A stretch of 64,000 nucleotides of DNA, from NCBI RefSeq assembly GCF_000317515.1, contig NC_019738.1, forward strand, positions 1,937,623 through 2,001,622. The letters run 5' to 3'. Source of the DNA: Allocoleopsis franciscana PCC 7113 (GTDB taxonomy: Bacteria; Cyanobacteriota; Cyanobacteriia; Cyanobacteriales; Coleofasciculaceae). The notes under the pieces were generated by a model. It did no database searches and had not been told where the DNA came from. It worked only from the letters and a program-made list of their open reading frames with translations. Made by a program: the position numbers and the translations under genes. This document shows, piece by piece, positions 5,150 to 54,958 of the stretch (within the stretch, counting starts at the first letter, position 1; each line of letters begins with the position of its first letter).

Positions 5150-5286
5150 TGTGAATTGTTAATTGGAATAGAATTTTTTAACGCAGAGGGACACAGAGGG
5201 ACGCGCAGAGGAACGCAGAGTTTTGGAGCAAAATTCCTGTTAATTTTGATGGCAGGGAAAACCTATCAATCCAAAATGGGTTGACT

Positions 5287-7422: not shown

Positions 7423-8280
7423 GTGCAAAGACTACTGATTCGTGTGGGGATTGGGGTGTTATTTGCCCTGTTTGGCATAATTACCTACTTTACTAACGTC
7501 ACTGACAACCCAGTAACGGGGGAAAAACAGCGGGTACAGCTCTCACCGCGCCAGGAAGTCGCACTTGGTATACAGGCACGGGACAGTATGGCGTCACGAC
7601 ATGGGGGTCTTTACCCGGATTCTAGACTCCAAGCCTATATCGATCAGGTGGGAGAGCGAGTGGTCAAGCAGTCGCAAGCGGCTAAAGCTCCCTATCCTTT
7701 TCAATTCCATTTGCTGCGCGACCCCAAAACCATTAATGCGTTTGCCTTACCTGGAGGACAGGTTTTTATTACAGCGGCTTTGCTCAGTCGCCTCAATTCA
7801 GAAGCACAATTGGCAGGGGTATTGGGGCATGAAGTTGGACATGTGGTGGGGCGACACGGCGCGGAACATCTGGCTAAACAGCAATTGGGGGGATCACTGG
7901 TGAATGCGGTCGGTATTGCGGCTAGTGATAATCCAGACAGTGCAAGGCAAGCGGCAGTTGTGGCGCAGGCGGTTAATCAATTGGTTAGCTTACGGTACGG
8001 GCGTGAGGATGAATTGGAAAGCGATCGCCTCGGTTTTCAGTTTATGACCACAGCCGGCTATAACCCAAAAGGGATTGTGGAACTGATGCAAATCCTCGCC
8101 TCTGCTAGACAGGGGGGGCAACAACCGGAGTTTTTAAGTAGTCACCCCGACCCTGGAAATCGAGTACAACAGCTCAATGCACTGATTGCTGATAACTTTC
8201 CCAAGGGTGTTCCTGCCAATCTCACAGAGGGACGCGAGGACTTTGCCCGCAATGTCAAGACTAGCTTACCTACTCGTTGA
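7423..8280 (+). CDS. M48-family zinc metalloprotease (BepA/YfgC-like), membrane anchored
   Basis: HEVGHVVGRH is an HEXXH motif. There is an N-terminal TM helix and a peptidase_M48 layout. Confidence 0.8.
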   Translation: MQRLLIRVGIGVLFALFGIITYFTNVTDNPVTGEKQRVQLSPRQEVALGIQARDSMASRHGGLYPDSRLQAYIDQVGERVVKQSQAAKAPYPFQFHLLRDPKTINAFALPGGQVFITAALLSRLNSEAQLAGVLGHEVGHVVGRHGAEHLAKQQLGGSLVNAVGIAASDNPDSARQAAVVAQAVNQLVSLRYGREDELESDRLGFQFMTTAGYNPKGIVELMQILASARQGGQQPEFLSSHPDPGNRVQQLNALIADNFPKGVPANLTEGREDFARNVKTSLPTR

Positions 8281-8290
8281 GGATTTGCCT

Positions 8291-9898
8291 TTAAGAACGT
8301 CCCATCAGTTTGGTAACGAGAGCCACTAATTCAGCCGCATCGACGGGTTTGGATAGGTGGAGATGGAACCCGGCAGCCAGGGCACGATCGCGGTCTTCGT
8401 CTCCAGCATAGCCCGTCAAGGCGATCGCCTTCGGCATAGCTGGGCTGAGTTGGGGGATTTCCCGTGCCTGTTCAGCAACCATTGCCTTGATTTGGCGAAT
8501 CAAATCATAGCCGTTCTGAATTGGCATACTAATATCACTGATCAGCACATCGGGTTGAAACGCGGCAAAGACGGCGATCGCCTCCTCTACCGAACACGCC
8601 GTCTTCACTTGAGCGTCATACTCTTCCAGTAAAAGTGCCATGACCTCACGAACGTCGGTTTGGTCATCCACAACCAGCACCTTCACACCGTTGAGAATAC
8701 CGGAGGGCTTCTCAGTCGCCAATTCCTGAAAAGCATCCTTGGGTGGATGACGAATGGCTAACAGGGGAAATTGGACTGTAAAAGTTGTCCCTTGTTCCTT
8801 ACCCAAACTTTCGGCTTGAACCGTGCCACCGTGAAGTTCAACCAGATGACGCACAATCGCTAACCCCAATCCCAGTCCACTATGTATACGAGTGCTGGAG
8901 CTATCTGCTTGGCGAAAGCGATCAAACACATAAGGTAAAAACTCAGGACAAATGCCAATGCCTGTGTCGCTGACAATCAAGGCAACTTTCGCTTCCCTTC
9001 GCGTCAACTGAATTTGAACTCGTCCACCTTGCGGGGTAAACTTGACCGCATTGGACAAAAGATTCCAGATAATCTGTTGCAAGCGCAGGGTATCCCCGGA
9101 AATGGAACCCGCTTCGGGGTCTAGCTTGCATTCGAGTTCAATCGCCTTAGCCTGTGCGGCGGGACGCACGGTAGAAAGAGCCGCCTCAATGACTGGAATG
9201 AGTTCGACGGGTTGCATGTTCAGGGCAAGCTTGCCGGTAACGATGCGGGAAACATCGAGTAAGTCTTCTATGATTTGCGCCAGAGACTTAGCGTTGCGCT
9301 CAATGGTTTCCGTTGCTCGTTTGTAGTCCTCATCTTTCAACCTCTGGAGTCGCAGAAGCTGCACCCAACCGTACATGGCATTCAGGGGGGTACGCAATTC
9401 ATGAGAGAGGTTAGCGAGAAACTCATCTTTGAGACGATTGGCTTCTTCGGCTTCGGCACGAGCGGCTCGTTCTTGTATCAGCAACAGATCTCGCTCTTGT
9501 TGTAAACGTTTGGCTCTTTGCCGCCATTCAGCCCGCTCCAACGCTAAGCGTACAGCGGTGGGTACTCGAATATAACGATTAGGAGCCTTGAGGATGTAAT
9601 CATCCAGCCCTGATTTCATCGCTTCCACCGCAATCTCTTCGTTGCCACTGTTGGTAAACATAATCACAGGACAGTCAGGATAGCGGGACTTAAGCTGCTT
9701 GAGTACGGTAAGTCCATCACTCCAGCCCAGTTGATAGTCGGTTATGACTATATCAAAGCCCCCTTGATCCATCGCTTGTGCCAAGACTTTGGTATTAATA
9801 ATTTCTGTAACCTGAAGTTCTGTAAATTCTCGCTCCAACTCGCGAATAATTAACAGGCGGTCAGTCGGATTGTCATCAATGACAAGAATGTAGGGCAT
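8291..9898 (-). CDS. Hybrid sensor histidine kinase (REC - HisKA - HATPase - REC)
   Basis: N-terminal receiver MPYILVIDDNPTDRLL. H-box LSHELRTPLNAM. ATPase G-boxes SDTGIGI...GLGLAIV. C-terminal receiver VLVVDDQTDVREV. Confidence 0.85.
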   Translation of the reverse strand: MPYILVIDDNPTDRLLIIRELEREFTELQVTEIINTKVLAQAMDQGGFDIVITDYQLGWSDGLTVLKQLKSRYPDCPVIMFTNSGNEEIAVEAMKSGLDDYILKAPNRYIRVPTAVRLALERAEWRQRAKRLQQERDLLLIQERAARAEAEEANRLKDEFLANLSHELRTPLNAMYGWVQLLRLQRLKDEDYKRATETIERNAKSLAQIIEDLLDVSRIVTGKLALNMQPVELIPVIEAALSTVRPAAQAKAIELECKLDPEAGSISGDTLRLQQIIWNLLSNAVKFTPQGGRVQIQLTRREAKVALIVSDTGIGICPEFLPYVFDRFRQADSSSTRIHSGLGLGLAIVRHLVELHGGTVQAESLGKEQGTTFTVQFPLLAIRHPPKDAFQELATEKPSGILNGVKVLVVDDQTDVREVMALLLEEYDAQVKTACSVEEAIAVFAAFQPDVLISDISMPIQNGYDLIRQIKAMVAEQAREIPQLSPAMPKAIALTGYAGDEDRDRALAAGFHLHLSKPVDAAELVALVTKLMGRS

Positions 9899-9976
9899 CG
9901 GCTTTGTCAGGAGTGTTCAAGCTGCCGTTTAGCAAGGCGCTTGAATCAATAGTTCTCAAACACGATAAAATAAGCA

Positions 9977-10423
9977 CTAACTATACTGAAATTCAGGCGG
10001 TTCATTGAGCATTAGCCAGTATAGGTTAAGAGTCCTCAACATTTCTACTAAAGCCGTGAAACCAATCGGTTTGACTAAATAGGAATTAACCCCTAAATCA
10101 TAAGATTGGTTGACATCAAGGGTTTCCCTGGAAGACGTCAACATAATCACCGGCAGGCGTTTGAGGTCGGGTTGCTGTCGTATCCATTCTAGGACTTCAT
10201 GACCTGAGCGGCGGGGAAGCTTTAGGTCTAGTAACATAAGCATGGGCAGGGGGTAGCATTCTCGGTCTGAGTATTCTCCTTCACCACTGAGGTAGAGAAC
10301 CGCTGCATCTCCATCTCTAACGATTTGTAGGGAAATATGGGATAAATCGGCTTGACGAAAGGCACGTTGAATTAGAAGAATATCAGCAGGATTATCTTCT
10401 ACGATCAAAATTGTCTGTGTCAT
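9977..10423 (-). CDS. Single-domain CheY-like response regulator
   Basis: MTQTILIVEDNPADILLIQRAF...LDLKLP is a receiver domain with no output domain. Confidence 0.8.
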   Translation of the reverse strand: MTQTILIVEDNPADILLIQRAFRQADLSHISLQIVRDGDAAVLYLSGEGEYSDRECYPLPMLMLLDLKLPRRSGHEVLEWIRQQPDLKRLPVIMLTSSRETLDVNQSYDLGVNSYLVKPIGFTALVEMLRTLNLYWLMLNEPPEFQYS

Positions 10424-10793
10424 CCTTCTTAAGACATCTTCATTAGCTTAACTTCAGCCTAGGAGATGTCAGCTCATTTGCTAAACATGTCTCGTTTTGT
10501 ACAGGAATACTCAACTTGACCCCAAATCGACTGCCTTGACCGAGTTGAAATTCTACTCTGACTCTGTCCCTGATCGGTTTAATCCCTTTCTCCATCTTCT
10601 TCCATCTTTCCCTACCATGACTCATCGCACCCCATTGGATTACATGTCCACTAGAGTTGAGCATGTAATCTTAATGTCAAGCAATTTTAGCCCAAATGAA
10701 AGGCGTAAATTTCTTAATTTAATTCTCTGTTAATAGCTCTCAAATAAACCATATTTTTTTTGATTGATTGTTGACGAAAATCCTTCTTGAGCT

Positions 10794-11237
10794 TTATCGG
10801 TTTGCCATCGGCTCTTTAACATTATGGAGAGTGGAATCCAGCTCTTCAATTTCTGGTTCAGTAGCCTGAAGATGTTTCTCTAAAATGGCTAGATTGCGGA
10901 TATTCGACTTGTAATAAGCGTCGAACAGGTCACCAACCAGAGGTACTGTACCCACAACGGCTTCTAGACCAATATTCAATATCATTTTCTGGATATCTTT
11001 ACTGGGAATACCGAGGCGAGTTGCTAGATAAATAATGTAAGCCGAAAAAGATGTACTAATTAAGTCCCCTGCACCCGGTATTAGACCGATAATTGGGTCT
11101 AACCCAATACGAAATTTGGTGCCAGGGATACCAATGGCTGTATCCATCAAGCGGCTGAGCTTGCGGATACGATTAAGAGTTGCTACACGTTCTAGAGTAT
11201 TCATAAAAGTAATAGTGGCACAGATTAATCCGCCCAC
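10794..11237 (-). CDS. DUF4112 family membrane-associated protein
   Basis: AIGIPGTKFRIGLDPIIGLIPGAGDLIS...VPLVGDLFDAYYKSNIRN matches the DUF4112 conserved core. Confidence 0.6.
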   Translation of the reverse strand: MGGLICATITFMNTLERVATLNRIRKLSRLMDTAIGIPGTKFRIGLDPIIGLIPGAGDLISTSFSAYIIYLATRLGIPSKDIQKMILNIGLEAVVGTVPLVGDLFDAYYKSNIRNLAILEKHLQATEPEIEELDSTLHNVKEPMANR

Positions 11238-12070
11238 CTTTCTACCCGAAGAATGAATTTAGCACCAGTAGGAAGGGTGAAGCACAACACAACTATCATC
11301 TCCAGGTTGATTAATCTTTAGTATTAAACTGATTAATCTTTAATATTAAACAAGTATATAGGGCGAAGAGGCGAAAAATCGGGTTTCAAGGCTGGGCTTT
11401 GGCACCTGAATACGGGCTTAACAATTCGAGAGGTTTGCTTTTCTTTTTTTTATATTTTCTTTATTATTTTAGTTCATAGATTCAGGTAAAATAGCTTATT
11501 TTAAATTCAAGAAATAACAATAGTTTAGCCAATTCCATCTAAAGAATGACTGGGATTCTGCCTCTAGAGTGAGAAAGAAATGACGAAAAAATTGGTAACT
11601 TTAGAGACGAAAAGAAAAGGTACTGGATGGGAGTTTAACCGCTGCGACCCATAGTTGTACATCAAAACAGAGCGATGTTAGATGTACAAACAGTGCATAT
11701 AGTTAGCTGACATCAACGGTGTGGAGTTTCTATCGATTTCTCCACTTTGTAACTACCGATGAGGGACTAAAATTCCCAGCAGAGCGGTCATTGGTAGGAG
11801 ACGTAAGGATGTCATCATAAAAACGCAATTAAGACGCCCATTCCGTCTTGGCTCAACTTGGCCCAAGGCGGAATGGCCGTATCAGGGAAAACAGATGTTA
11901 ATCAGGGAGCGTCTAAGCTGTTACGCATCTAATTTGCTTGTTGAGGCGGCGGGGGAGCAGAGCCGGAGCTCATACGAGGACAGAGGAGCGGATGTGAACT
12001 GTTTTATCCTGTGTTGAGAATGTGCAAGTTAAATGCGCTTTAGCTTACAAATGTTTAAATGCGCGATCGC

Positions 12071-12799
12071 TTATGCATGAATTCGACCATCAGGTAAGAT
12101 AGCTCCAGACAAATTGGCTCCTGTTAATTTGACCAAAATTCGATCGCCAGACCCAATTTTAGCCCCCCTTAAGTCAGCGCCACTTAAATCAGCGCCACTC
12201 AAATCGGCTCCAATTAAGTTAGCCTCTCTTAAATTAGCTTGATTCAGGTTCGCTTGAAAGAGATTCGCTCTAAAAAGATTTGCCTTTTCCAAATTCGCTC
12301 CCTGAAGATTAACCTTATGCAAAAAACTATCACTTAAGTTGGCATTACTGAGATTGGCATGACTCAAATTGCGTCCTGACAAATCTTTTTCTTTTAAGTC
12401 AACACCTCGAAAGTCAGCTCCACTCAAATCAGGATTGGGCGTTCGAGTTTGGGAGGAAGATTGCGATCGCGATTGTGCAGTCGTTTCCCTTTGGGAGTAT
12501 CGCGGTTGGGAGCGGGGTGGTGTATATTGAGCTCGTTGCGGTGCAGGAGAAGGCGATCGCGTAGTTTGTGCTGTTGGCTTGTGACCCTTGCGTCGAGCTA
12601 AACGCAACTGATCGCGAGCGTGATTAATCTCCTTGAGTTTTTCCGCCGCTTTTTCCCGCAGCCGAGAATTATCGCTTGGGACGCGATCAGGATGCCAAAT
12701 AAACGCCAAATCTTTATAAGCCTGGTTCACCTCTTCGAGAGAGGCTCCCGGCTCTAACCCCAATATTCTATAGCAATGATCTAGCTCGTTCATCACCAC
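12071..12799 (-). CDS. J-domain protein with C-terminal pentapeptide repeats
   Basis: DnaJ domain CYRILGLEPGASLEEVNQAYKDLAFIWHPDR with an HPD motif. A Ser/Thr/Pro/Gln-rich linker follows, then more than 15 A(N/D)LSx pentapeptide repeats. Confidence 0.8.
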   Translation of the reverse strand: MVMNELDHCYRILGLEPGASLEEVNQAYKDLAFIWHPDRVPSDNSRLREKAAEKLKEINHARDQLRLARRKGHKPTAQTTRSPSPAPQRAQYTPPRSQPRYSQRETTAQSRSQSSSQTRTPNPDLSGADFRGVDLKEKDLSGRNLSHANLSNANLSDSFLHKVNLQGANLEKANLFRANLFQANLNQANLREANLIGADLSGADLSGADLRGAKIGSGDRILVKLTGANLSGAILPDGRIHA

Positions 12800-20288: not shown

Positions 20289-20328
20289 TTCGCCATAAGT
20301 GCCAAGGATTGATATTATAGATTAGCCC

Positions 20329-20413
20329 GGAGAGGTGGCAGAGTGGTCGAATGCGCTCGACTTGAAATCGAGTGACTCGAAAGAGTCCGTGGGTTCGAAT
20401 CCCACCCTCTCCG
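20329..20413 (+). tRNA. tRNA-Ser (anticodon UGA)
   Basis: Acceptor stem GGAGAGG/CCTCTCC. Anticodon stem-loop GCTCGA-CTTGAAA-TCGAGT, giving anticodon TGA. Long variable arm GACTCGAAAGAGTCC. T-arm GTGGGTTCGAATCCCAC. Discriminator G, no encoded CCA. Folded by eye. Confidence 0.8.
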
Positions 20414-20549
20414 TTATCCAGTGAAACAGTATTGTGAGCGATCGCTTGGTTATATTGGTTCGTGACAGTGCAAATACACAAGTCGTTGTGCGTGAATCTC
20501 TGAAAGACGGCTGAACGCTTCTTCTCTCGGTTTGGTTGCGAGAGTTTAG

Positions 20550-20680
20550 ATCCCCCCCAGCCCCCCCACCCCCCTAATCCCCCCTTGGTAAGGGGGGACA
20601 TTAGAAACGAGGGGGGAGAAAACTCTTAAAGTCCCCCTTTTTAAGCCGGAGCCGAAGGTGAGGAGATTTAGGGGGATCTA
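20550..20680. repeat. Cluster of poly-C/poly-G palindromic hairpin repeats (C6-TTGGTAA-G6 core at 20579-20597) just downstream of tRNA-Ser
   Basis: Direct reading. Related copies lie at 21021-21039, 21643-21661 (inverted loop), 22119-22137 and 48331-48349. Confidence 0.75.
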
Positions 20681-20866
20681 ATCGTCTACCTCATCTGGCA
20701 TTACGTCAAAAACAATTTCATAAGGAACGCTGGGTATCATTTGCTTGAGGATTCGCAGATGCCCCTCCGCATCAACTCGGCGGCGAAAGCGCCCGACGAT
20801 GAGGGTACGCATATCGGGGAAGGGGCGGATGATGCACCAGGGATTGAGGCGTTGTAAGTAGGTCAT
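20678..20866 (-). CDS. Hypothetical small protein (62 aa), overlaps the upstream ORF by 4 nt (ATGA)
   Basis: ORF only. The translationally coupled pair architecture is the sole support. Confidence 0.3.
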   Translation of the reverse strand: MTYLQRLNPWCIIRPFPDMRTLIVGRFRRRVDAEGHLRILKQMIPSVPYEIVFDVMPDEVDD

Positions 20867-21183
20867 GACGATGTCCTAATTGGGTTTGCGGGTTGCTTTT
20901 TTAGGGCGCTTTGAATGATGGTTTCAAGGGTTTGGCGTCTGATGTCGTTGTCTTGCGGGTGAAGTACCCAGGCGCTGATTGGGGCGGGTTGATAAGTCAG
21001 CGTGTAGAACCCCCCTGTTTCCCCCCTTGTTAAGGGGGGACCAAGGGTGATGATGATTTTCCAGACGGGTTGTTTGGGTTGTTTACGAAGTCGGTAGCCG
21101 CGTTGATGCAGTGCTGCTTTTATGGCAGCAATATCTGTGGCGACTCGGAGTGCTTCCGTCGCTTTTGATTTTTTCATTGGTAA
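20863..21183 (-). CDS. Hypothetical protein (probable start MKKSKATEAL); contains a copy of the C6/G6 palindromic repeat in-frame
   Basis: ORF only. No recognisable domain. The PPLTRGETGG segment is encoded by the repeat at 21021-21039. Confidence 0.3.
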   Translation of the reverse strand, partial: LPMKKSKATEALRVATDIAAIKAALHQRGYRLRKQPKQPVWKIIITLGPPLTRGETGGFYTLTYQPAPISAWVLHPQDNDIRRQTLETIIQSALKKQPANPIRTSS

Positions 21184-21265
21184 TCTATTAGTAGACACGA
21201 CAGCGATTGCCCAGCAAGCGCTTGGCGCTCTAGGCAATTGCTTTTTTTGTTGTGGTTCAAAAAAG

Positions 21266-21320
21266 ATGTTCTGAAGACAGAACATTTCTATCTTACCTCA
21301 ATGTTCTGAAGATAGAACAT
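21266..21320. promoter_or_regulatory. Twin 20-bp palindromic operator-like sites (ATGTTCTGAAGACAGAACAT at 21266-21285; ATGTTCTGAAGATAGAACAT at 21301-21320) in a divergent promoter region
   Basis: Perfect 8-bp arms AGAACAT/ATGTTCT. The two copies are 15 bp apart and sit 39-93 bp upstream of the XRE-HTH gene start. Confidence 0.6.
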
Positions 21321-21358
21321 TTATTCGGTTATAAGCCTCTGACAAAGTTTCACAAGGC

Positions 21359-21598
21359 ATGGGAAGAGCAGGCAAAGCCCTTAAGCAAGTATTGGAAAAC
21401 TACGACATTACTCAGAATCGATTAGCTGTGGAGATGGGGATTAGTCGCTCTAGCGTTCACCGTTGGGTTTATGAAATTGGCGATCCTGTGGCTGATGCAG
21501 TGATTGATATTCGAGATGCGCTTCACAAGATTAATTCAGAGGCGGCTGAGGAGTTTATCAGGCTTTACCTTGGTGTTGTAGGTGAGGAGAAGGAGTAG
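21359..21598 (+). CDS. XRE/Cro-like helix-turn-helix transcriptional regulator
   Basis: ITQNRLAVEMGISRSSVHRWV is an HTH_3-like motif. 79 aa. Confidence 0.65.
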   Translation: MGRAGKALKQVLENYDITQNRLAVEMGISRSSVHRWVYEIGDPVADAVIDIRDALHKINSEAAEEFIRLYLGVVGEEKE

Positions 21599-21722
21599 GG
21601 ATAGGGGAAGAAAGTGCGATCGCATTTCTCTTCTCTCTTGCTCCCCCCTTACCAAGGGGGGCTGGGGGGGTAAGAGGAGAAACACTTATAACGACTGACA
21701 TCTATAAAACCCAACTATAGCT

Positions 21723-22088
21723 ATGACCAAACTTTATAACAGAGCATCCGAAAAAGCGAAACGACAACAGCTTCGGCAGAATATGACAAAAGCTGAATTT
21801 ATGATTTGGCAAAAACTCAAAGGTAAGCAGATTGAAGGCTGTAAGTTTCGCAGCCAATATGGTGTCGGTCAGTTCGTTATTGATTTTTATTGCCCTGAAC
21901 TTAAACTAGCGATAGAAATTGATGGAGACAGCCATTTTCAAGATGGCGCACAAGAATATGATCGGGAAAGACAGGCTTTTATTGAATCTGTTGGGATTAG
22001 GTTTTTAAGGTTTACGAATAATGAGGTGTACGATAATTTGGAAGGGGTTTTGGAGAGGATTACTCAGGAAATTTGGGAATTATGGTGA
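21723..22088 (+). CDS. DUF559 endonuclease-domain protein (Vsr/restriction-endonuclease-like fold)
   Basis: FRSQYGVGQFVIDFYCPELKLAIEIDGDSHF...DRERQAFIESVGIRFLRFTNNEV matches DUF559. Confidence 0.7.
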   Translation: MTKLYNRASEKAKRQQLRQNMTKAEFMIWQKLKGKQIEGCKFRSQYGVGQFVIDFYCPELKLAIEIDGDSHFQDGAQEYDRERQAFIESVGIRFLRFTNNEVYDNLEGVLERITQEIWELW

Positions 22089-22234
22089 GGTGATGAGTTA
22101 CGGATCTTACCCCCCCACCCCCCCTTGTTAAGGGGGGAGTAATATCAATTTACTCGCCGACTGAAAACAGATACTTTTTCTGTTCCCCCCTTGATAAGCC
22201 GGAGCTTTAGTGAGGAGTTTAGGTGTTAGCTCTA

Positions 22235-22918
22235 TTACTGGCTAAGTAATTCAATTAAGTCGTTCTTCCTCTTCTTGCTGTAGCCAGCTATCCCACGCTT
22301 TTTAGCCATATCTCTCAGCTCTCCAGCAGTTAGGGTGTTTAAGCTAGTAGACTCTTTGATAACTTCAGGCATGGGTTGAGGGGTTAAGTAGAAGACTTCC
22401 TTTAAAGCATTTAGCTTCTTACCTTTGGTAATACCACACTTGAGTGTTGTAATTGGGTCTAGTGTTTTCCAGTACTGACGAGGAGCTTCATCAATGCGAT
22501 CGGTAGCAATCAAAAGCTTAACTCCCTTAAGTTCAGCACCAGGTTTTTCAATTAAATATTGGAGTGCAGCTTTAATGTCATCTCTCGTGGCTGTAGAAAG
22601 GTTGATTTTTGGTGTTACTTCGCCTGATAGAACTTTAGTCAGTTCTACAGTTTCGTTACTAGAATCAGCAATAATGCACCAGACTTTCTCTAAACCCGCT
22701 TCTTCAGCAACAGCATAGATAAATGAGTTGCCAATGACTTCATATTGGTCTTCGCCAATTTCTTTGACAATTACAGGAACCCAATTACGACCGCCTAACT
22801 TGTTGAGAGTTTTTGCTGTAGCGGTAATCAAAAATTCAGGAGCATCTGTCCCTTCACCAGGTTGAATTTCATCCATGTACAGATGCATTAAGTTACCAAT
22901 ATCACTTAAGTTGCTCAT
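22235..22918 (-). CDS. ParB-like N-terminal-domain protein with C-terminal Rho_N/SAP-like motif
   Basis: NWVPVIVKEIGEDQYEVIGNSFIYAVAEEAGL resembles the ParB/Srx fold but lacks the canonical GERRxRA arginines. The C-terminus LTAGELRDMAKKRGIAGYSKKRKNDLIELL is Rho_N-like. Its start overlaps the parA stop (ATGA). Confidence 0.55.
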   Translation of the reverse strand: MSNLSDIGNLMHLYMDEIQPGEGTDAPEFLITATAKTLNKLGGRNWVPVIVKEIGEDQYEVIGNSFIYAVAEEAGLEKVWCIIADSSNETVELTKVLSGEVTPKINLSTATRDDIKAALQYLIEKPGAELKGVKLLIATDRIDEAPRQYWKTLDPITTLKCGITKGKKLNALKEVFYLTPQPMPEVIKESTSLNTLTAGELRDMAKKRGIAGYSKKRKNDLIELLSQ

Positions 22919-23771
22919 TGCAGAAAATACTCCTTCGCTAACTCTAGATAATACTGACGAGCTGTTTTGTCTTTGTAAGCAGCAGGCATACGAGAAAAAG
23001 CCGCACTAGCTATATGAGCATAACTAGGTAGTTCAAAGATATGACGATCTTTTTTAGCTGGAGTGTAGCGAGGATAGAAATAGGGAAGCATGTCAAACTT
23101 TTTTTGTTTATCTTTCTTAGCCTCTTCAATGAGGTTATCTATCGCATGATAAGCAGTAATTTTTTGGGGTTCTGGAATCTTCTCGCCATTGAAGAAAATT
23201 GGTAGTGCAATAGGTCCACCATCTTTTCTTACTTGTTGAACTTCAGGGATAAATCGTTTGATAGCTATGGCTGCATTCTCTAGGGAAAAGATGTTGTTGT
23301 GCTTAGTTGGAATTAGCACAACATCTGAGGCATATATAGCACTTGCACTCAAGAATCGCCAGTTAGGAGGTGAATCAATCAAAATGTAATCATATTCAGA
23401 CTTTAAACTATCTAATATTTGACGAAGCCTGAATATTTTAAATCTTTGGCGTAACTGGTCTTCACTCAGACTAGCTAACAATTCATCAGCAGGAATAATA
23501 TCAAACTGAAATGATTGACCATTTCTTGCATTCTTTGTGACGAATGGCTGTATTACATCACCAGGTTTGACACTGTTTTTTTTATCTTCCAAGTAAGAAG
23601 AGAAGGTTTCCTTACCTTGTTTTATAGATAATGAATTAGTAAGGTCTTGCTGGTTAGGGTCGAAGTCAACAATGAGAGCTTTTTTCCCTTTAATGTGAGA
23701 ACAGCAGCTAAATTAACAGTAGTCGTCGTTTTGCCTACCCCGCCTTTATTGTTGTATATTGCTACTGTCAA
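22915..23771 (-). pseudogene. parA: ParA/MinD-family partition ATPase, reading frame broken by a 1-nt deficit in an A6 tract at about 23690-23700
   Basis: The Walker A box KGGVGKTT lies in the upstream ORF (23622-23936). The remainder (ALIVDFDPNQ-like continuation, YDYILIDSPPN) lies in ORF 22915-23592, which is in the +1 frame. One extra A in GGGAAAAAAGCT would fuse them. The TTG start near 23771 is inferred. Confidence 0.65.
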
Positions 23772-24052
23772 TGCTCTTGGCGTATTTTCGATTTTCTGTT
23801 TTATAGCTGTTACAATCTCAATGAGATTATCTGGCGTAATATCAAGACAGGATGTTGCTGGGTAAATAACCCTCCCATGCTTTCTGAATAATTGTATGTG
23901 GACTGAATTAGTAATAATACCCCGGGAGCATCCCAATTTTGCAAGAAGGCAAGAGAACGGGAAGTTTATTCGCGATTTTTACTCGCGAATAAAGGCCGAC
24001 TAGGCGGATGTTGCCCTAACTGCGACAATTTAATTAGTTAGGGAGCCTCTTT

Positions 24053-46503: not shown

Positions 46504-49500
46504 GTGACAGTTGCGTACGTCCTGATAGAGTTTGACAAACGATATACTTTGGGAAACGGATGGCAGTCCTTCATCGGGGAGCATTCAATGATTACCCTGC
46601 CTGGAATTACTATCCACAGCAAAATTTATGAGAGCTTAGCTTCTTTGGTGTATCGGGGCATCAGAGAGCAAGATGATTGTGCAGTGATTGCCAAAGTTCT
46701 CAAGCAGGATTATCCCTCTCCTCAGGAATTAACTCGCTATCGGCAGGAGTATGAAATTACTCGTTTTCTCAACATTGAAGGCGTAGTCAAGGCATACAGC
46801 CAGCAAGACTACCAGCGCACGCTGGTTATTCTTTTGGAAGACTTTGGTGGAGAGTCTTTAGAATGCTGGATGCGGCAACAGTTAGACTTCTCTCCCATGC
46901 CGTTGTCGGTTTTTCTGAAAATGGCGATCGCCATTACTGATACTCTAGGCAAAATCCATGCGGCTCATGTCATCCATAAGGACATTAATCCTGGCAACAT
47001 TGTCTTTAATCCGAGGACTGGCGTTGTCAAAATCATTGATTTTGGCATTGCCACTCGCTTCAGTCGCACCAATCCCACCTTCAAAAGTCTCCATCTTCTA
47101 GAAGGAACCCCCGCCTATTTGTCGCCAGAGCAAACCGGACGAATGAACCGGATGCTCGACTATCGCACTGATTTCTACTCGCTGGGTGCAACCTTCTACG
47201 AACTGTTGACGGGACAATTGCCGTTTCCCACCCGTGATCTCCTGGAACTAGTCCACTGTCACATTGCTACACCGCCGATTCCTCCACACGAAGTTAGGGG
47301 TATGGGGGATGGGGTGTGGGGTGTGGGCAGGGATGGTTCATCATCGACCAGGCATACAATTCCTAAAGCAGTTTCCGACATTGTGATGAAACTGATGGCG
47401 AAGAATGCAGAGGATCGCTATCAGAGTGCCTGGGGCATCAAAGCAGATCTAGAATGCTGTGCTCAACAACTGGCAGAAACGGGTCAGATTAACGCCATAT
47501 CGTTGGGACTGCAAGATGTTTCCGAGCAGTTCCGCATTCCTCAAAAACTGTATGGGCGAGAAGCGGAGATTGCAGCATTATGGGTAGCGTTTGACAGAGT
47601 GACGGGGAATCGGGAATCGGAAGTCGAGAATCGGGAAAAACACCCCACACCCTACACCCCACACCCCACACCCTACACCCCACACCCCACACCCCACACC
47701 CTACACCCTACACCCTCATGCAGCGAAATGATGCTGGTCTCTGGTTACGCTGGCGTTGGCAAAACAGCATTGGTACAGGAACTCTCTAAACCGATTACCG
47801 CAAAGCACGGCTATTTTATCTCTGGCAAATTTGACCAATTCCGGCGCAACATTCCCTACAGCGCGATCGTTGATGCTCTGCAAAATTTGGTGCAGCAACT
47901 CTTGGGAGAACCCAATGAACAGGTGGAAGTATGGCGATCGCGTTTACTCACTGCTTTGGGAAGCAACGGACAAATTATCATAGATGTCATTCCCGAAGTT
48001 GAGTTCATTATTGGCAAGCAGCCCCCTGTGCCCGAAGTTGGAGCAACTGAGGCACAGAATCGCTTCAATCTTACGTTTCAAAGGTTTGTGCGGGCGTTTT
48101 GTGCAAAAGAGCATCCCCTAGTCATTTTCTTAGACGATCTACAGTGGATCGATTCTGCGACGTTGAAGTTAATCGAACTCGTCTTACTTGATGAGCAAAT
48201 CCAGTATTTGTTTTTGATCGGAGCCTACCGAAATAACGAACTGACTCCAACGCATCCGGTGGTCTTAACGCTCTTAGAACTGCGAAACCAGGGAGCAGTA
48301 TTTCAGGAAATCATCCTGACCCCCCTCAATCCCCCCTTGGTAAGGGGGGAAGTAAAGGGGGGTGGCAGTGGAACCTGGCTGAGATTGAAGCTCAAGATAT
48401 CACCGATAATGTGGTGGAGTTGCTGCTGCGTCAGTTGCAAAAATTACCGGAAGCAACACAGCAAGTTCTCTCCATCGCTGCTTGTGTTGGGTCTGAGTTT
48501 GATTTAGAAACGTTGGCGATCGTTTGCGAAAAATCACCGAAAGCAATTTTCCAGGATTTATTAGAAGCAATACAATCTGGATTAATTCAACCTTTGTCTG
48601 AATTGGACGAAGACTTGTTGGTTCAAGAGTATAAGTTTCTGCACGATCGCGTTCAGCAAGCGGCTTATGCTTTGATTGATGAATCGCAGAAACAAGTGGT
48701 TCATCTCCAAATCGGTGGCAATTTGCTCGAAAAAACTTCACCAGAGCAACGATCCGATCGGTTGTTTGAAATCATCGATCATCTCAATCAGGGAATTGAG
48801 CTAGTCACTGCTCAACCAGAACGAACTGAAATTGCCAGATTGAATTTAATAGCAGGTCAGAAAGCGAAGGCAGCAACGGCTTATGAAGCCGCGTTTAAGT
48901 ATTTCACTACAGGGATTCAACTTCTCAATCCAGAGAGTTGGCAGAGTGAGTATGACCTTACTTTAGCGCTGTACTCAGAAGCAGCAGAAGCAGCATATCT
49001 TCATGGTTGCTTTGATGAGATGGAACAATTCGTAGAAGTGGTACTCGTTCACGCTAAGACAGTGGTTGACAAAGTGCAGGTTTACGACAGCAGAATTCAA
49101 AGACATTTGTCACAGGGCAACCTGAAAGAAGCACTTAAAATTGGATTGGAAGTGTTAAAGCTTCTGGGAGTGATTTTACCAGAAAATCCAAGTGAGTTAG
49201 ATGTTCGAGGCGGATTGGAGTCAACGGCTGCACTACTCGCTGAACGAGAAATTGAAGACTTGATTAATTTACCAGAGATGACTGCACCAGAACCGCTAGC
49301 AGCAATGTCAATCCTAGCGAGTATTGGAGCGACTGCGTTTATAGTTTCGACAGCACTACAGGTACTTATTGCGTGCAAAATGGTAAATTTATCGCTCGAC
49401 TACGGCAATTCTACCTGGTCACCAATGAGTTATGCTGCCTATGGAGTTGTTCTATGTGGAGTTGTTAAAGACATTGAACTTGGTTATAAATTTGGCAAAT

Positions 49501-52500
49501 TGGCTCTCGGTTCGCTAGAACGATTGAATACCAAAAAAAGGGATGCTAAAGCATTTGTGGTATCGGTTGCCCTAATCATGCACTGGAAAGTGCATCTTAG
49601 GAACACAATACCCATGCTGATTGATGCTTATCAAAACGGAGTGGACACTGGAGACTTTGAATTCGCTGGCTATGCTGCATGTGACGTGTGCTACAACTCG
49701 TTTTTCGTCGGTGAGGAACTCACCCAACTGGAACAGAAAACGGCAACATACAGCAAAGCAGTTGATCGAATCAGACGGGAAAGCCCCTCGACTTGGATTG
49801 CAATAGTGTGGCAGACCATTCTTAATTTGCTAGACAGGTCTGAGAATCCCAGTCGCTTAGTTGGTCGAGTGTGTAATGAAGAGCAGGCATTACCACACGC
49901 CCTTGAAGTTAAAGATGGAACTGCAATTCAAATGCTATATCTGCACAAAGTTATACTGTGTTATCTATTTGAAGAATATCATCAAGCTGTACAGAGTGCT
50001 ATTCTGGCAAGGCAACATTTTGAAGAAGTGACAGCAACAAAGGTTTTACCTGTATTCTGTTTCTATCATTCTCTAGCGTTTTTGAGTCTATCGCTCGATG
50101 CTTCAAACTCTGAAAAAGTAGCTTGGCTAAACTGTGTTAACACCAACCAAGAAAAGATGCAGAAATGGGCAGAACACGCCCCAATGAATTATCTACATAA
50201 ATTTTATCTAGTCGAGGCAGAGAAAGCGCGAGTCTTAGGGCAATTTCTTGAGGCTGAAGAGTTTTATGAACGGGCGATCGCAGGTGCTGCTGAAAATGAG
50301 TATATCCAGGAGGAAGCATTAGCTTATGAATTAGCGGCTAAGCATTATCTAGCGCGAGGTCGAGAGAAAATTGCTCAAACTTATATGAAAGAGGCGCACT
50401 ATTGCTATAGTCGCTGGGGCGCGATCGCTAAAGTTAAAGACTTAGAAAAACGCTATCCACAGTTCTTTTGTCAGTCGTCTAGAGCCGCTTCCGCATCAGT
50501 TCCTATTACTGCTGAAACTATCTCTAATTCCTTCCATACTGCTTTCGATTTAGCAGCAGTGATGAAAGCTTCACAGGCGATTTCTCGTGAAATTGAACTG
50601 AAGCAATTGCTGCGATCGCTGATGCAAATTTTAATTGAGAATGCTGGCGCACAAACCGGATATCTGATTTTAGAAAACTCAGGAGAATGGTCGATTGAAG
50701 CGGCTTGTGAACTCAATGCCGAGGAGAATGCTTGTGCGACTCAGGTGTTACAGTCTACTCCAATTGCCGCTCAATTGCCAGAATCAATCATTCAATATGT
50801 GATTCGGACTCTGAAGCCTGTCACCTTAAATGATGCGACTCGTGAAGATGCTTTTATTAATGAGCCATACATTCAACAGAACCAGCCTCAATCTATTTTC
50901 TGTTTGCCGCTGCTGAATCAAGCCAAGCTGGTCGGTGTATTGTATTTAGAAAATCGGTTAGCCGCTGGAGTATTTACACCAGAGCGATCGCAAGTCTTGC
51001 AGCTATTATCGACTCAAGCCGCAATCGCCATCGAAAATGCCAACCTTTACTCAGAACTGCGGGCTAAGGAAAGCAAGATCACCCAGTTCCTCGAAGCGAT
51101 TCCGGTGGGAATTGGGATCGTGGATGCGACGGGTCGCCTTTACTATACCAACCAATGCGGCAATCAACTCGTGGGCAAAGAGACTGATCCTTCCATCGCA
51201 CCAGAGCAGATCTCAGAGGCTTATCAGCTTTATGTAGCGGGAACGGATCAAGTCTATCCAGCGGAGAGCTTGCCTATTGTGCAGGCATTAAAGGGCGAAC
51301 GCATCAGGACTGAAGATATAGAAATTCGTCGAGATCATGTCTCAATTCTACTTGAGGCACGGGGAACACCAGTTTTTGATCAACAGGGCAATATCATTTA
51401 TGCGATCGCTACCTTTCAGGACATTACGGAGCGCAAACAAGCCGAGAAACTCCTAGCTGACTACAACTGCACTTTAGAGCAACAGGTTGCAGAACGAACT
51501 GCTGCGTTACGACAAAGTGAGGCTAATTACCGCAACCTGCTACAAACCGCGAATTCAGTCATCGTTCGCTATGATCCGCAAGGACGGATTCACTACATCA
51601 ACGATTATGGGGTAAAACTTCTGGGCTATGAAGAACATGAGATTTTAGGGCGAACCTTATTTGAAACCATCCTTCCAGATATCGAACTCTCTGGACGCGA
51701 TATGAAACCCTTTGTCCATGATTTACTTCGTAATCCTCAATCGTACCCGCGAGGTGAGGGTGAAAATTTGTGTCGAGATGGTCGGCGAGTTTGGATGGAG
51801 TGGTCGAATCAAGCCATTTTCAATGACCAGGGAGATGTCGTTGAAATCTTATCGGTGGGCAACGACACCACCCAGCGTAGACAAGCAGAAGAGGCATTAC
51901 AACGCAGTGAAGCCAAGTTCCGAGCTATCTTTGCAAACTCCCAGGTTGGCATCTACCGCACCCGCATCGGTGATGGATTAATTCTTGATGCCAATCAACG
52001 CTTTGCAGAACTGTTTGGCTTTGATTCACCCCAAGAGATGATTGGAATTGAACACACTATAGGCTATTGGGTCAATCCCAGCGATCGCCAACGAGGCATT
52101 GAAGTGATGAAGCGGGATGGGGAAGTGCGAAGCTTTGAAGCACAGTTGCAAAAACGAGATGGGACAGTGTTTTGGGGACTTTTCTCTTCCTATCTGAATG
52201 CAGGCGATGACTACATCGAAGGGGTGCTTGCAGATATTAGCGATCGCAAACAAGCAGAAGCAGCCCTACAAGTCTCAGAGTCAAAGCTACGGACTCTAAT
52301 TGAGGCAATTCCCGATCCATTGTTTGTATTCTCTGCTGAAGGGCGATTCCTTGAAATAATGGTACTGGAACCAAATCTGCTATGGCAACCCTTTGAGGAG
52401 ATGATTGGTAAAACTATGCATCAACTCGGAAGGGAAGAAGCTGATGAGTTTCTAGGTTATATTCAGCAGGTACTGAGAACCCAACAAATCCTCACGGTCG

Positions 52501-53237
52501 AGTATGGTGCGTTTCTAAATGGACGAGAAATGTGGTTTTCGGCTCGCATTGCCCCAATCAGCCACGATCAGGTGATTTGGCTGGTGCGAGATATTACGGC
52601 GCAGAAGCAAGCAGAAGCCACCTCGATTCTGGAAGAGCGTAACCGCATGGCACGCGAAATTCACGACACACTCGCTCAGTCGTTTACGGGCATTCTGGCT
52701 CAGGTGGGAGCGGCGAAACAGGTGCTAACGGATGATTTAGAAGCAACTGGGGCACATCTCGATCTGATCAAAGAATTGGCGCGAACTGGACTGACTGAAG
52801 CGCGGCGATCGGTTGTCGCGCTCCGTCCTCAGCTTTTGGAGGAAGGCAGTTTACAAAGTGCTCTCCATCGTCTCGTCGCTCAGGTTAGAGCTGCCGCAAT
52901 GGATACCACTTTGTACTATGAGATTGAGGGTGCAGTGTATGCTCTACCCAGCGAAGTCGAGAGTAACCTACTGCGGATTGGGCAGGAAGCCTTAACCAAT
53001 GCGATTAGACACGCCCATGCTGACGAAATTCGAGTGGAGCTAGTCTACAAGTATGATCAGTTTTTGTTGCGCGTAAAAGACAATGGACAGGGCTTTGGAG
53101 TGGGCAGTATTCCCTCCTCTGAGGGCTTTGGCTTACTCGGCATGAGCGAGCGGGCAGAGCGCATCGGTGCACAACTCACGATTCGGAGTCAACCCGGACA
53201 CGGAACAGAGATTATTGTCACCATCGATCGGGAGTAA
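46504..53237 (+). CDS. Giant multidomain signalling protein: Ser/Thr protein kinase - AAA/STAND ATPase - TPR-like - GAF - 3xPAS - HisKA_3/HATPase histidine kinase (HstK-like); frame interrupted at 48331-48374
   Basis: Kinase HKDINPGNIVFN...DFGIA...PAYLSPEQ. Walker A GYAGVGKTAL. GAF region around aa 690-850 of the second ORF. PAC ends (ITERKQAE, DISDRKQAEAAL, ITAQKQAEA). H-box EIHDTLAQSFTGI, with a GFGLLGMSERAE ATPase. Two ORFs (46504-48507 and 48411-53237) overlap in different frames across a palindromic repeat insertion. Confidence 0.75.
47296..47335. repeat. Heptanucleotide tandem repeat block (GGGGTGT/GGGGATG type), translated within the kinase domain
   Basis: ggggtatgggggatggggtgtggggtgtgggcagggatgg encodes RGMGDGVWGVGRDG. 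Confidence 0.7.
47605..47715. repeat. Heptanucleotide tandem repeat blocks: (GAATCGG)n then (CCCCACA/CCCTACA)n, about 11 units, in inverted orientation to the 47296 block
   Basis: Encodes NRESEVENREK then HPTPYTPHPTPYTPHPTPHTLHPTP. A 21-nt periodicity keeps the frame. Confidence 0.8.
48331..48374. repeat. Inserted copy of the C6-TTGGTAA-G6 palindromic repeat family inside the giant kinase gene (about 44 bp, not a multiple of 3)
   Basis: Flanking codons read ...IILTPLN | insert | LAEIEAQ... in frames that differ by one nucleotide. Confidence 0.65.
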
Positions 53238-53244
53238 GCTCACG

Positions 53245-53874
53245 ATGAGCCAAGCCACGACCATTCGGGTTCTAATTGCGGACGATCATGCTATCTTTCG
53301 GCAAGGATTAGCCACGATTATTAACCGTGACCCTGATATGAACGTGATTGCCCAAGCGGAAAATGGGGAACAAGCGATCGCGCTATTTGAGGAACACCAA
53401 CCGGATGTCACGCTCATGGATCTGCGAATGCCTGAAGTTGAAGGAGTTGCCGCCATCGGTGCAATTCGTGCTATTGCTAAATCTGCTCGGATTATTGTAC
53501 TAACCACGTATGATAGTGACGAAGATATTTACCGGGGATTGCAGGCAGGAGCCAAAGGATATCTGTTGAAAGAAACTGAACCAGACGAGCTTCTGAATGC
53601 GATTCGTACCGTTTATCGGGGTCAGCAGTATATTCCGCCCGATGTGGGAGCAAAATTAGCACAGCGACTCAGCAATCCAGAACTGAGTGAAAGAGAACTA
53701 GAAGTACTTCGCTCACTAGCACAGGGAATGAGTAATGCGGAAATTGCGGCGGCTTTGAGTATTGGTGAAGGCACGGTTAAATCTCATGTCAATCGGATTT
53801 TGAATAAGTTAGATGTGAGCGATCGCACCCAGGCTGTGATTGTTGCGGTTAAGCGCGGCATTGTTAGTTTGTAG
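53245..53874 (+). CDS. NarL/FixJ-family response regulator (REC plus LuxR-type HTH)
   Basis: IRVLIADDHAIFRQGL receiver. C-terminus ELEVLRSLAQGMSNAEIAAALSIGEGTVKSHVNRILNKL. GGAG Shine-Dalgarno before the ATG at 53245. It is the cognate regulator for the HisKA_3 kinase upstream. Confidence 0.85.
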   Translation: MSQATTIRVLIADDHAIFRQGLATIINRDPDMNVIAQAENGEQAIALFEEHQPDVTLMDLRMPEVEGVAAIGAIRAIAKSARIIVLTTYDSDEDIYRGLQAGAKGYLLKETEPDELLNAIRTVYRGQQYIPPDVGAKLAQRLSNPELSERELEVLRSLAQGMSNAEIAAALSIGEGTVKSHVNRILNKLDVSDRTQAVIVAVKRGIVSL

Positions 53875-54271
53875 GGTGTACTTTCGATCAAATGGAGATT
53901 CTAACTTAAGTTAGAGTCAGCCTTCTACTCTGCGATGGCAGGGTTACTCTATCAATTTGTACTATAAAACTTTTAACTCTCTATAGACGACAGCTTGAAG
54001 GCGATCGCCTATATTGAGTTTATGCAAATAGAAGTGCATCCAATCAGGCAAATCATGCTCGTGGGTGGTGGTTACCCTTTATAGCAAAAGGCAGAAGGCA
54101 GGAGGCAGAAGGCTTTTATGTTTTTTACTGGTATAGCAGTCGCCAAGGCGATTAGAACAAATGCCCCAAAGCTAATTGTCAATCCCAGCTTTTGCAATGT
54201 CCTAACGGTTGTGGCGGTTGCTATACGTGGTCGTTTAAGCCGTTCAATCTGTCCTAAGAGGCTGTTTGTAA

Positions 54272-54802
54272 ATGATTATGAAGTCATCAATCAATACATC
54301 ATTGACCTGGAAAACAACGTTGTCATTTGTAACCCTTGCCACCCTACTCATTCTGCTGATTGGCTGGCTCATCAAAAATCAAGTATTGCCAGTCAAGACA
54401 GTTATAGATTACAGCGCATGGGAAACCAACTTTATACAATTTTGGATCTGGGTGGCTATTGGAGTTGGGCTACTACTCCCTGGCATTGCTTTCTTGGTTT
54501 GGCTGCGTTATCCCGAACCTCGAAAAATTTTAGGCTTCTATTTACTAGTTTTACTTGTTCAGATAATAACTGAACAAATTTTAAGTAGCATTTTGTTTCC
54601 CAGTTTACTGGTAATTATCGGAACTATTTACACGATTTATCGGATTTGGCAATTATGGCAGAGTCAACAGGTTGTAAATAAAAATACTCAACTCAATACA
54701 TTTAGCCCAAAAGTTCTTAATAGTTTATTGCATCTCTTACTACTTTTTTGGTCAATCAATTTAGCAGTTCTCTTAGTTTTGTGTTTTCCTGCCATTGTAT
54801 AG
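54272..54802 (+). CDS. Hypothetical polytopic membrane protein
   Basis: 4-5 hydrophobic helices. No recognisable motif. Confidence 0.4.
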   Translation: MIMKSSINTSLTWKTTLSFVTLATLLILLIGWLIKNQVLPVKTVIDYSAWETNFIQFWIWVAIGVGLLLPGIAFLVWLRYPEPRKILGFYLLVLLVQIITEQILSSILFPSLLVIIGTIYTIYRIWQLWQSQQVVNKNTQLNTFSPKVLNSLLHLLLLFWSINLAVLLVLCFPAIV

Positions 54803-54925: not shown

Positions 54926-54958
54926 AATTGCGAATTGCGAATTGCGAATTGCGAATTG
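54926..54958. repeat. STRR-like heptanucleotide tandem repeat (AATTGCG) x 4.5
   Basis: aattgcgaattgcgaattgcgaattgcgaattg, read directly. Confidence 0.8.

Follow-up and report, generated by a model that had tools for sequence, protein, structure and literature searches.

Heptanucleotide repeats in frame within a giant cyanobacterial sensor kinase gene that has probably been inactivated

We analyzed a 64-kb chromosomal stretch of Allocoleopsis franciscana PCC 7113, a member of the Coleofasciculales, a non-heterocystous lineage. This stretch is called the window below, and positions are counted from its first nucleotide. It carries three tandem arrays of heptanucleotides, detected with Tandem Repeats Finder (TRF), inside a gene for a giant sensor kinase that is here spread over two open reading frames (ORFs). 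The features of the locus are as follows.

46504-48507, + strand: ORF1, N-terminal fragment of a giant Ser/Thr-kinase / AAA_16 / GAF / PAS / HisKA_3 sensor kinase
47297-47327, + strand: block 1, 4.4 copies of GGGGTRT (TRF period 7, consensus GGGGTAT)
47605-47637, + strand: block 2a, 4.7 copies (TRF) of a GGGAATC-type unit, encoding NRESEVENRE
47640-47716, + strand: block 2b, 11 copies of ACACCCY, encoding (HPTPxTP)n, in the linker between kinase and AAA domains
47489-47692, - strand: antisense ORF of 67 amino acids (aa) with a GTG start
48317-48362, + strand: deletion junction and hairpin element, TGACCCCCC TCAAT CCCCCC TTGGTAA GGGGGG AAGTAAA GGGGGG
48363-53237, + strand: ORF2, the remainder of the gene in the -1 frame, with GAF, three PAS, HisKA_3 and HATPase_c domains
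53167-53874, + strand: response regulator gene of the NarL/LuxR type (Response_reg and GerE), overlapping the end of ORF2

The product of ORF1 is 100% identical to AFZ17588.1 / WP_015181740.1, which NCBI gives as a protein of 639 aa (from ATG 46588) or 667 aa (from GTG 46504). Pfam places a Pkinase domain at aa 47-307 (3e-33) and an AAA_16 domain at aa 405-572 (2.5e-39), with block 1 inside the kinase domain and block 2 between the two domains. TRF and Pfam agree in this with a first-pass annotation of the same DNA, made from its letters alone, which had described heptamer arrays within a loop of the kinase and in a linker ahead of the AAA domain. All three arrays are in frame in ORF1, and the translations given at that stage, RGMGDGVWGVGRDG and NRESEVENREKHPTPYTPHPTPYTPHPTPHTLHPTP, are correct. 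Block 1 belongs to a 54-nt insertion (47293-47350, VRGMGDGVWGVGRDGSSSTRH) in a loop of the kinase C-lobe that runs from CHIA to KLMAK. The units of block 2a are, in order, GGGAATC GGGAATC GGAAGTC GAGAATC GGGAA. For block 2b, TRF reports 10.9 copies at 47640-47715 with 92% matches and the consensus ACACCCC; direct reading gives 11 full units, in which Y runs C T C C T C C C T T T.

Blocks 1 and 2b form an inverted pair, reverse-complementary over 31-nt arms (87% complementarity) that lie 316-358 nt apart, so that the inverted arrangement seen at first pass stands. Occurrences of the 14-mer CCCCACACCCCACA, with up to two mismatches, number 12 in the window as against 0.18 expected, and 11 of the 12 fall in the two blocks. 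One candidate explanation, a mobile element resembling a miniature inverted-repeat transposable element with the inverted blocks as its termini, was rejected: the 312 nt that separate block 1 from block 2b are conserved kinase-coding sequence and are also present in orthologues that have no arrays.

ACACCCC/GGGGTGT and GGGAATC are free of stop codons in all six frames; for the ACACCCT variant this holds on the coding strand only, the reverse strand having TAG. Because 7 and 3 are coprime, every frame of a heptamer array yields the same cyclic 7-aa peptide. The antisense ORF at 47489-47692 begins with such a peptide: its N-terminus (VWGVGCRVWGVGCRVWGV) is block 2b read on the reverse strand, where no stop interrupts it. 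The ORF is no gene but a by-product of the array, and the earlier judgment that it is spurious holds, since it is largely a reverse translation of the repeat.

The two sites were then compared among relatives, three of which are L002, an Elainellaceae metagenome-assembled genome (MAG), L007, Nodosilinea LEGE 06152, and L080, a Microcoleus sp. SIO2G3 MAG. The CHIA-KLMAK loop is exactly 31 aa long in 46 of 61 loci and 35-87 aa long in the other 15. The block-1 insertion, of 18 aa, is present in the window, L080, L002 and L006. At the block-2 site, the linker measures 30-32 aa (..FDRVAGSKAVREMMLVSG) in 23 loci and reaches up to 107 aa in others, and about 40 of 63 relatives have insertions there. 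In the closest orthologues one array or both are absent, and the linker is 6 aa long.

The number of ACACCCY units differs among these genes, as the first-pass annotation had supposed it might between strains, so that its own ground for refutation, an unvarying copy number, does not apply. There are none in L083 and the other nearest array-less genes, two in L033, five in six orthologues (L001, L002, L005, L006, L081 and L082) and 11 in the window. Variants for which both flanks are known differ by three or six units (21 or 42 nt), and the reading frame is therefore always kept. L080 has 15 ACACCCY units and three fewer GGGAATC units, with an order of variant units unlike that of the window. 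Its contig is 1.3 kb long and chimeric at both ends (a fold-back on one side, antisense hemB on the other), and the count is unreliable for that reason.

Variation of this kind raises the question of a contingency locus, in which changes in unit number would frameshift the kinase on and off, or the inverted copies would flip the 312-bp segment between them. A 7-nt unit inside ORF1 is not a multiple of three, copy number does vary between orthologues, the variant-unit order differs between the window and L080, and inverted 31-nt arms are at hand. Moreover, the 11-unit array sits in the upper tail of its class: only 3 of 96 arrays in cyanobacteria-like contigs, among the matches listed, reach at least 11 units. 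Nevertheless, the repeat-number phase variation that the first-pass annotation had put forward finds no counterpart in the data, as no frame-toggling alleles occur among the variants with both flanks known, all of which differ by three or six units. The five-unit state is common to six diverged lineages, implying that the array is not hypermutable in the sense of a contingency locus. The one possibly out-of-frame case, L080, sits on a chimeric contig; no contig with the inverted orientation was seen; and the product is a cytoplasmic sensor kinase, neither a surface protein nor part of a restriction-modification system. Phase variation has also been judged unlikely for this class of repeat (Rehm et al., 2015; PMC4692102). 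We consider a contingency locus quite improbable.

Other relatives contain what look like single-copy precursors of the arrays. At the block-1 site, L025, L027 and L022 have an insertion of 10 aa, flanked by similar residues, that contains GGGGTGT or GGGGGTG once; with these proto-units at the same site, block 1 looks like an in-place amplification from one to four units. At the block-2 site, L025 and L027 have one GGAAATC followed by AGAAAAA, and the array of L002 starts with GGGAGTC, close to the native GGGAGTA. As judged from these alignments, the proto-units indicate that the arrays were probably born in place. The repeat peptide also drifts among orthologues, to HSTSHTPHPTP and ETYPTPHTPHPTPQ for example.

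The same loops are occupied by unrelated heptamers elsewhere: AGTTCTG/AACTCAA in L003 and L023, CAGTCAC/CAGTTAT in L055, AACGGGG in L068 and GGGAGCA/CCCCCTG in L072. Inserts of a G/C hairpin type are present at these loops in L043 and L071. We counted 37 period-7 arrays of at least three copies inside the kinase ORFs of 22 loci; about 29 are at the two sites, seven lie in or just before HATPase_c, and one is elsewhere. The HATPase_c arrays belong to more distant relatives and define a third permissive loop. A single tight clade shows three states of the linker: no insertion (L004, L007, L083), GGGAATC with ACACCCY (L001 and the window), and AGTTCTG with AACTCAA (L003). Independent insertions into this linker of roughly 6 codons have boundaries that vary by a few nucleotides. 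If selection retains insertions only in permissive loops, this recurrence is accounted for, and no targeting is needed. Insertion directed to one exact nucleotide, which we entertained as a candidate, is unsupported, since boundaries differ between events and proto-units exist.

The family has a further, very small indel element. A 27-nt in-frame insertion (CTTAGCGCAGAGCGCAACTCCGAAGGA, encoding LSAERNSEG) lies between ..DLETLA and IVCEK in L024 (7968-7998), L001, L002, L006, L011, L033, L044 and L054. It is absent from the window, where the equivalent position is ~48520.

We next consider predicted structure. G-quadruplex (G4) motifs were defined by the regular expression G3+N1-7 x4 and scored with G4Hunter. 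Block 1 is the sole canonical G4 motif on the + strand of the window (47297-47321, G4Hunter 2.76), and block 2b has two on the - strand, at 47643-47667 and 47671-47695 (G4Hunter -2.40). Block 2a, with 4.7 copies of GGGAATC of which two units are degenerate, falls short of the canonical motif. The first-pass annotation had pointed to a potential stem between the inverted blocks, and the predicted RNA fold of 47280-47730 does pair block 1 with block 2b (minimum free energy -159.5 kcal/mol, z = -2.98); this pairing is retained in L002 and L006, at a spacing of 311-315 nt. A hairpin made by block 2 alone, with the GGGAATC arm against the ACACCCY arm, was discarded as no better than shuffles (z +1.3, -0.5). 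The unrelated insertion at the block-2 site of L003 is predicted to form a strong hairpin (-26.6 kcal/mol, z -4.9).

These predictions bear on the idea that the arrays are functional elements, serving as selected flexible linkers, as a G4 and long-range hairpin that regulates expression of the kinase, or as both. Pro/Thr-rich repeats are classical extended linkers, and the arrays are kept in frame in intact orthologues of 2,100-2,400 aa. The position of block 1 as the only + strand G4 motif and the conservation of block pairing in L002 and L006 would also fit. The GGGAATC class, to which block 2a belongs, forms G4s in vitro (PMC4692102), while a G4 in GGGGTGT is only putative. On the other side stand the closest orthologues, which do without one or both arrays and with a 6-aa linker; the unrelated sequences that fill the same sites in other lineages; the drift of the unit sequence; and the failure of block 2 alone to fold better than shuffles. 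Overall, we think it unlikely that the arrays are functional elements.

The first-pass annotation spoke of a kinase gene. The gene is not intact: its frame is broken at 48317-48362, 600 nt downstream of the arrays, with a further G/C-rich repeat at the break. ORF1 makes sense to about 48330 (..EIILTPL) and then continues for about 60 out-of-frame codons. The frame of ORF2 is open from 48237, its first listed start is GTG 48411, and homology picks up at WQWNLAEIEAQDITDNVVE. Orthologues in more than 20 related genomes each occupy one ORF of 2102-2443 aa, compared with 676 + 1666 codons in two frames here. The interval 48325-48362 has 38 nt in the window compared with 180 nt in the orthologues; the missing stretch encodes TLEPLSQLIAETLH..KTEGNPFF..LLTFDAQQLS, so that about 56 codons are lost. 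The 38 nt that remain are a G/C hairpin element, CCCCCC-TTGGTAA-GGGGGG-AAGTAAA-GGGGGG.

The orthologues suggest how this could have come about. In L002 and L007 the hairpin element immediately precedes the WQW codons, in frame, and the segment of 60 codons is complete. L002 has two TGACCCCC copies, at 3799 and 3968: the native one, at the LTPL codons, and 169 nt downstream of it another, TGACCCCC(C), that the element creates; the window keeps one TGACCCCC, at 48317. On this comparison, a slippage or microhomology deletion between the TGACCCCC direct repeats would give exactly the window sequence. Because 169 is 1 mod 3, the deletion necessarily shifts the frame. ORF1 and ORF2 are the two parts of a single gene, divided by a microhomology deletion of 169 nt; public annotation treats ORF1 as an ordinary protein ("ATP-binding protein"). 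What remains is most likely a sensor kinase locus that was truncated or inactivated recently, with a probable loss of function. The NarL/LuxR-type regulator downstream is the expected partner of a HisKA_3 kinase.

The hairpin belongs to a dispersed element with the consensus C6-7 N4 CCCCCC-TTGKTAA-GGGGGG, which is in frame at the same codon position in L002, L007 and P0005-like proteins. Its 19-nt core occurs five times in the window, at 20579, 21021, 21643(-), 22119 and 48331; the four copies other than that in the kinase gene are intergenic and clustered among small genes within 1.6 kb.

A second disrupted copy of the gene is found in L083 (JGI 3300041964 contig, 8001-10878), an array-less orthologue that is split in two ORFs at another point than in the window, after ..LILLDEQT, and flanked by DDE_5 and IS66-type transposase genes. 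The kinase gene would seem to be easily disrupted.

Repeats and C6/G6 runs are error-prone, and short-read contigs break inside the array (L080, L204, L205), so the arrays or the frameshift might be assembly or homopolymer sequencing errors of the reference. Against this, the same arrays recur in many independent orthologue assemblies, and slippage between TGACCCCC copies 169 nt apart predicts the junction exactly. The junction and its homopolymer lengths are, moreover, 100% identical in the Logan assemblies of SRR610358 and SRR29904085, two separate read sets, which excludes an error of the reference assembly at this point. An artefact has next to nothing to recommend it.

The break might instead be bridged during translation. 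A -1 ribosomal frameshift at A_AAG_GGG (48354-48360) would join ORF1 to ORF2 before WQW: this X_XXY_YYZ heptamer is in the frame of ORF1, where a -1 slip turns GTA AAG GGG into AAA GGG GGG TGG CAG TGG, and the frames of ORF1 and ORF2 overlap openly at 48237-48504. Yet the motif is part of the hairpin element, which L002 and L007 read in another frame without a shift; the strong hairpin lies upstream of the slippery site, and no stimulatory structure was found downstream of it; and the relatives are single-frame ORFs, so the two-frame arrangement is not conserved. We estimate the chance of an X_XXY_YYZ motif in 89 overlapping codons at about one in three, and the fused product would still be without 56 conserved residues. 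Rescue by recoding is very unlikely. We give as little credence to a broader version, in which -1 frameshifting makes one protein and the G4-prone complementary arrays tune translation or mRNA stability. If it were true, small G/C-run repeats would be recoding or regulatory modules in giant cyanobacterial signaling genes.

The account we favor, and consider probable, is that the three arrays are cyanobacterial heptanucleotide simple sequence repeats (SSRs) of the short tandemly repeated repetitive (STRR) type and of a G4-prone subclass, tolerated as products of slippage in a gene that has probably been inactivated. It builds on the anatomy and frame of the arrays, the 3-unit polymorphism, the proto-units, the recurrence of sites, the geometry of the deletion and its confirmation in reads. 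By this account, replication slippage would have amplified single-copy heptamers in place. The products would survive where the strand that is read is stop-free in all three frames, where they fall in surface or linker positions that tolerate almost any insertion, and where length changes are multiples of three units, the only ones to persist. The array peptides, a Gly/Trp-rich one of G-V-W-G-V-G type and the Pro/Thr/His-rich (HPTPxTP)n, would most likely be disordered passenger linkers, neutral to the protein. The ACACCCY array would have grown from 5 to 11 units in the PCC 7113 lineage. A sister repeat, the C6/G6 hairpin element, would have inserted in the gene and made a second TGACCCCC, leading to the 169-nt slippage deletion that split a gene of 2,200-2,400 aa into two ORFs.

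Several observations weigh against this account. On a rough neighbor-joining tree of the kinase-AAA region the arrays are not monophyletic; judging by that tree, recombination between gene copies, rather than simple descent, appears to spread them. The 5-unit array has the same flanks in six lineages of roughly 75-90% nt identity, and the linker could perhaps be useful. The pairing of the blocks beats shuffles and is kept in L002 and L006, making a structural role of the RNA or DNA possible. The AlphaFold model of the kinase-AAA fragment is poor (mean predicted local distance difference test score 53.7) and cannot prove that the insertions are disordered; it has no secondary structure in either insertion, which may hint weakly at disorder. 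Finally, both halves of the gene stay long open frames, and the split products could be expressed.

A census of related DNA places the arrays in a wider class. Among tandem repeats in 961 kb of related loci, a period of 7 is by far the most frequent, with 156 of roughly 590 arrays; such arrays are abundant in Microcoleus, Okeania, Nodosilinea and other loci. The mode of heptamer copy number is 4.x with or without a G3 tract (37 of 108 arrays are at 4.x without one), in a distribution truncated by the TRF score floor. G4 formation as the cause of the four-unit mode is weakened as a candidate by the G3-less heptamers, which show the same mode. Among neighboring arrays, in the matches listed, there are 122 abutting pairs of unrelated heptamers, and pairs of the same heptamer are inverted in 21 cases compared with direct in 10. 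Inverted layout, abutting unrelated heptamers and a mode of 4-5 units are typical of the class.

Arrays of CCCCACA/CCCTACA with 4.5 or more units occur in at least 120 metagenome contigs. Among the matches listed, a filter for GC content below 0.50 and the absence of telomere-type CCCTAAA-like arrays kept 80 and set 40 aside. The 80 cyanobacteria-like contigs hold, again among the matches listed, 96 internal arrays, seven of them in open frames and two in ORFs of at least 300 codons. CCCYACA arrays are thus widespread and mostly non-coding. ACACCCY-type copies also occur outside the kinase gene in L002, L011 and L018. Elsewhere, in-frame ACACCCC arrays lie between the domains of a PEP-synthase-like and of a CheA-like protein, and are also seen inside the part of a MalK-like ATPase that matches ABC_tran.

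Inverted same-unit pairs, 1-400 nt apart, are frequent and give strong predicted hairpins, as in the L003 insertion; they are seen at L003 6967-7043, L019 3296-3366, L018 2469-2592, L011 9045-9492 and L162 1180-1308. Several of the excluded contigs (L084, L094, L151, L152, L203 and others) have long CCCTAAA arrays and look like eukaryotic subtelomeres, so that the CCCCACA variant would also be present in eukaryotic telomere-adjacent DNA. The window has other heptamers outside its long ORFs: GCAGAAG x4.3 (54084-54113), which ends 4 nt before ATG 54118; a perfect AATTGCG x4.7 at 54926-54958, downstream of the ORF at 54272-54802; and ATTGTGA x3.3 at 5148-5169.

Other features of the window lie apart from the kinase gene. 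After a tRNA-Ser(TGA) gene (20328-20414) comes a patch of small genes (the whole region being 20328-23936) encoding an HTH_3 protein, a DUF559 endonuclease and a weakly matching ParB_N/Rho_N protein. The same patch has a ParA-like ATPase split between 23622-23936 and 22915-23592 on the - strand, with profile positions 34-76 of AAA_31 missing. It looks like a decaying integrated element. Rfam matches the small RNA CyVA-1 at 11620-11696 (74 bits compared with a gathering score of 41.4), and tandem repeats of 22-nt and 15-nt units lie near it at 11308-11351 and 12168-12371. Beggiatoa and Parabeggiatoa genomes (L065, L069, L071, L073, L079) encode kinase-AAA relatives that are 50-52% identical, and one of these, in L071, carries at the block-2 site a hairpin insert made of a C-run and a G-run. 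These relatives fit the reported gene exchange of cyanobacteria with Beggiatoaceae.

In summary, the arrays are an ordinary case of a known repeat class, and phase variation is unsupported. Their value is modest: they form part of a natural series of heptamers born from single units and growing in 3-unit steps, confined by filtering to two or three permissive loops, the same ones each time, of a signaling protein of 2,000 aa. The main demonstrable effect of such G/C-run repeats in this family is local instability, and the case presents a G/C hairpin repeat whose microhomology led to the deletion of 169 nt and the splitting of a gene. For annotators, two neighboring ORFs of PCC 7113, one labeled "ATP-binding protein" and the other a histidine kinase, together make up a single gene that has been disrupted. 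When cyanobacterial proteomes show antisense ORFs or low-complexity peptides of the HPTP or GVWG kind, these are usually repeats that have been translated.

How do these arrays compare with known systems? Contingency loci of host-adapted bacteria include the heptanucleotide repeats at hmw in Haemophilus influenzae. The arrays resemble them in a unit that is not a multiple of three, in their place inside a gene and in their varying copy number. They differ in that no frame-switching alleles were seen among orthologues, in the stable 5-unit state and in the nature of the gene, which is for cytoplasmic signaling.

Very small dispersed repeats (SDRs) of cyanobacteria were reportedly described by Elhai and colleagues in 2008 (cited in PMC3116915). 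The hairpin element, CCCCCC-TTGKTAA-GGGGGG, present five times in the window and mostly intergenic, may resemble SDRs or palindromes like the repetitive extragenic palindromic sequences, and membership of a named SDR family would be putative. It differs in its documented effect here, which is the microhomology deletion.

STRR sequences were reportedly found in heterocystous cyanobacteria by Mazel and colleagues in 1990, and Vioque is said to have described STRRs inside the gene for RNase P RNA in 1997. The classical units are CCCCAGT, TTGGTCA and CAACAGT, and they have been described as specific to heterocystous strains. Our arrays share with STRRs a tandem heptanucleotide structure, the existence of many families, a mostly intergenic location and occasional tolerance at a permissive spot of a functional gene. 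The units are different, and the hosts extend beyond heterocystous strains to Coleofasciculales, Microcoleus, Nodosilinea, Okeania and Symploca. Head-to-tail copies, a mostly non-coding dispersal on both strands in related DNA and unit-step polymorphism, the marks of the heptamer SSR/STRR class, are all found; the restriction to heterocystous strains in the original definition does not extend to this host. Of the first-pass assignment, the STRR-like class therefore stands and the heterocystous setting does not, the host being one of the Coleofasciculales. That restriction looks outdated.

TAACTGA heptamers of Beggiatoaceae and cyanobacteria show 7-nt indels between close strains (MacGregor, 2015; PMC4679880). 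Inside ORFs they lie at the protein periphery or between domains, and the stop-free orientation alone survives (PMC4679880). Shared features are heptamer arrays, length differences between relatives and in-ORF copies between domains. TAACTGA has stops in all forward frames and is concentrated just upstream of start codons, whereas our arrays have a stop-free coding strand and lie mid-gene.

The closest comparison is with G-rich heptameric SSRs, known from Xanthomonas with the unit GGGAATC and from Nostoc PCC 7120 with the unit GGGGAYT (Rehm et al., 2015; PMC4692102). These prefer four units and convergent inverted pairs, and they form G4s and i-motifs in vitro, the G4s with GGGAATC and GGGGAYT repeat oligonucleotides; the share of arrays that lie within genes is 7-11% for Xanthomonas and about 32% for Anabaena; no function was found, and phase variation was judged unlikely (PMC4692102). 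Blocks 1 and 2b differ in their unit, GGGGTGT / ACACCCY rather than GGGNATC, and the setting differs in its non-heterocystous host and in inverted partners that lie 312 nt apart, in frame, in a gene of the 2,000-aa class. In both, the unit is 7 nt long with a G3-4 tract, and block 2a has the very GGGAATC unit; at least four units with a G3+ tract make a canonical G4 motif in blocks 1 and 2b, with a predicted, putative quadruplex; and dispersal on both strands, a mode near four units, inverted pairs, an intragenic minority and length variation are common to both.

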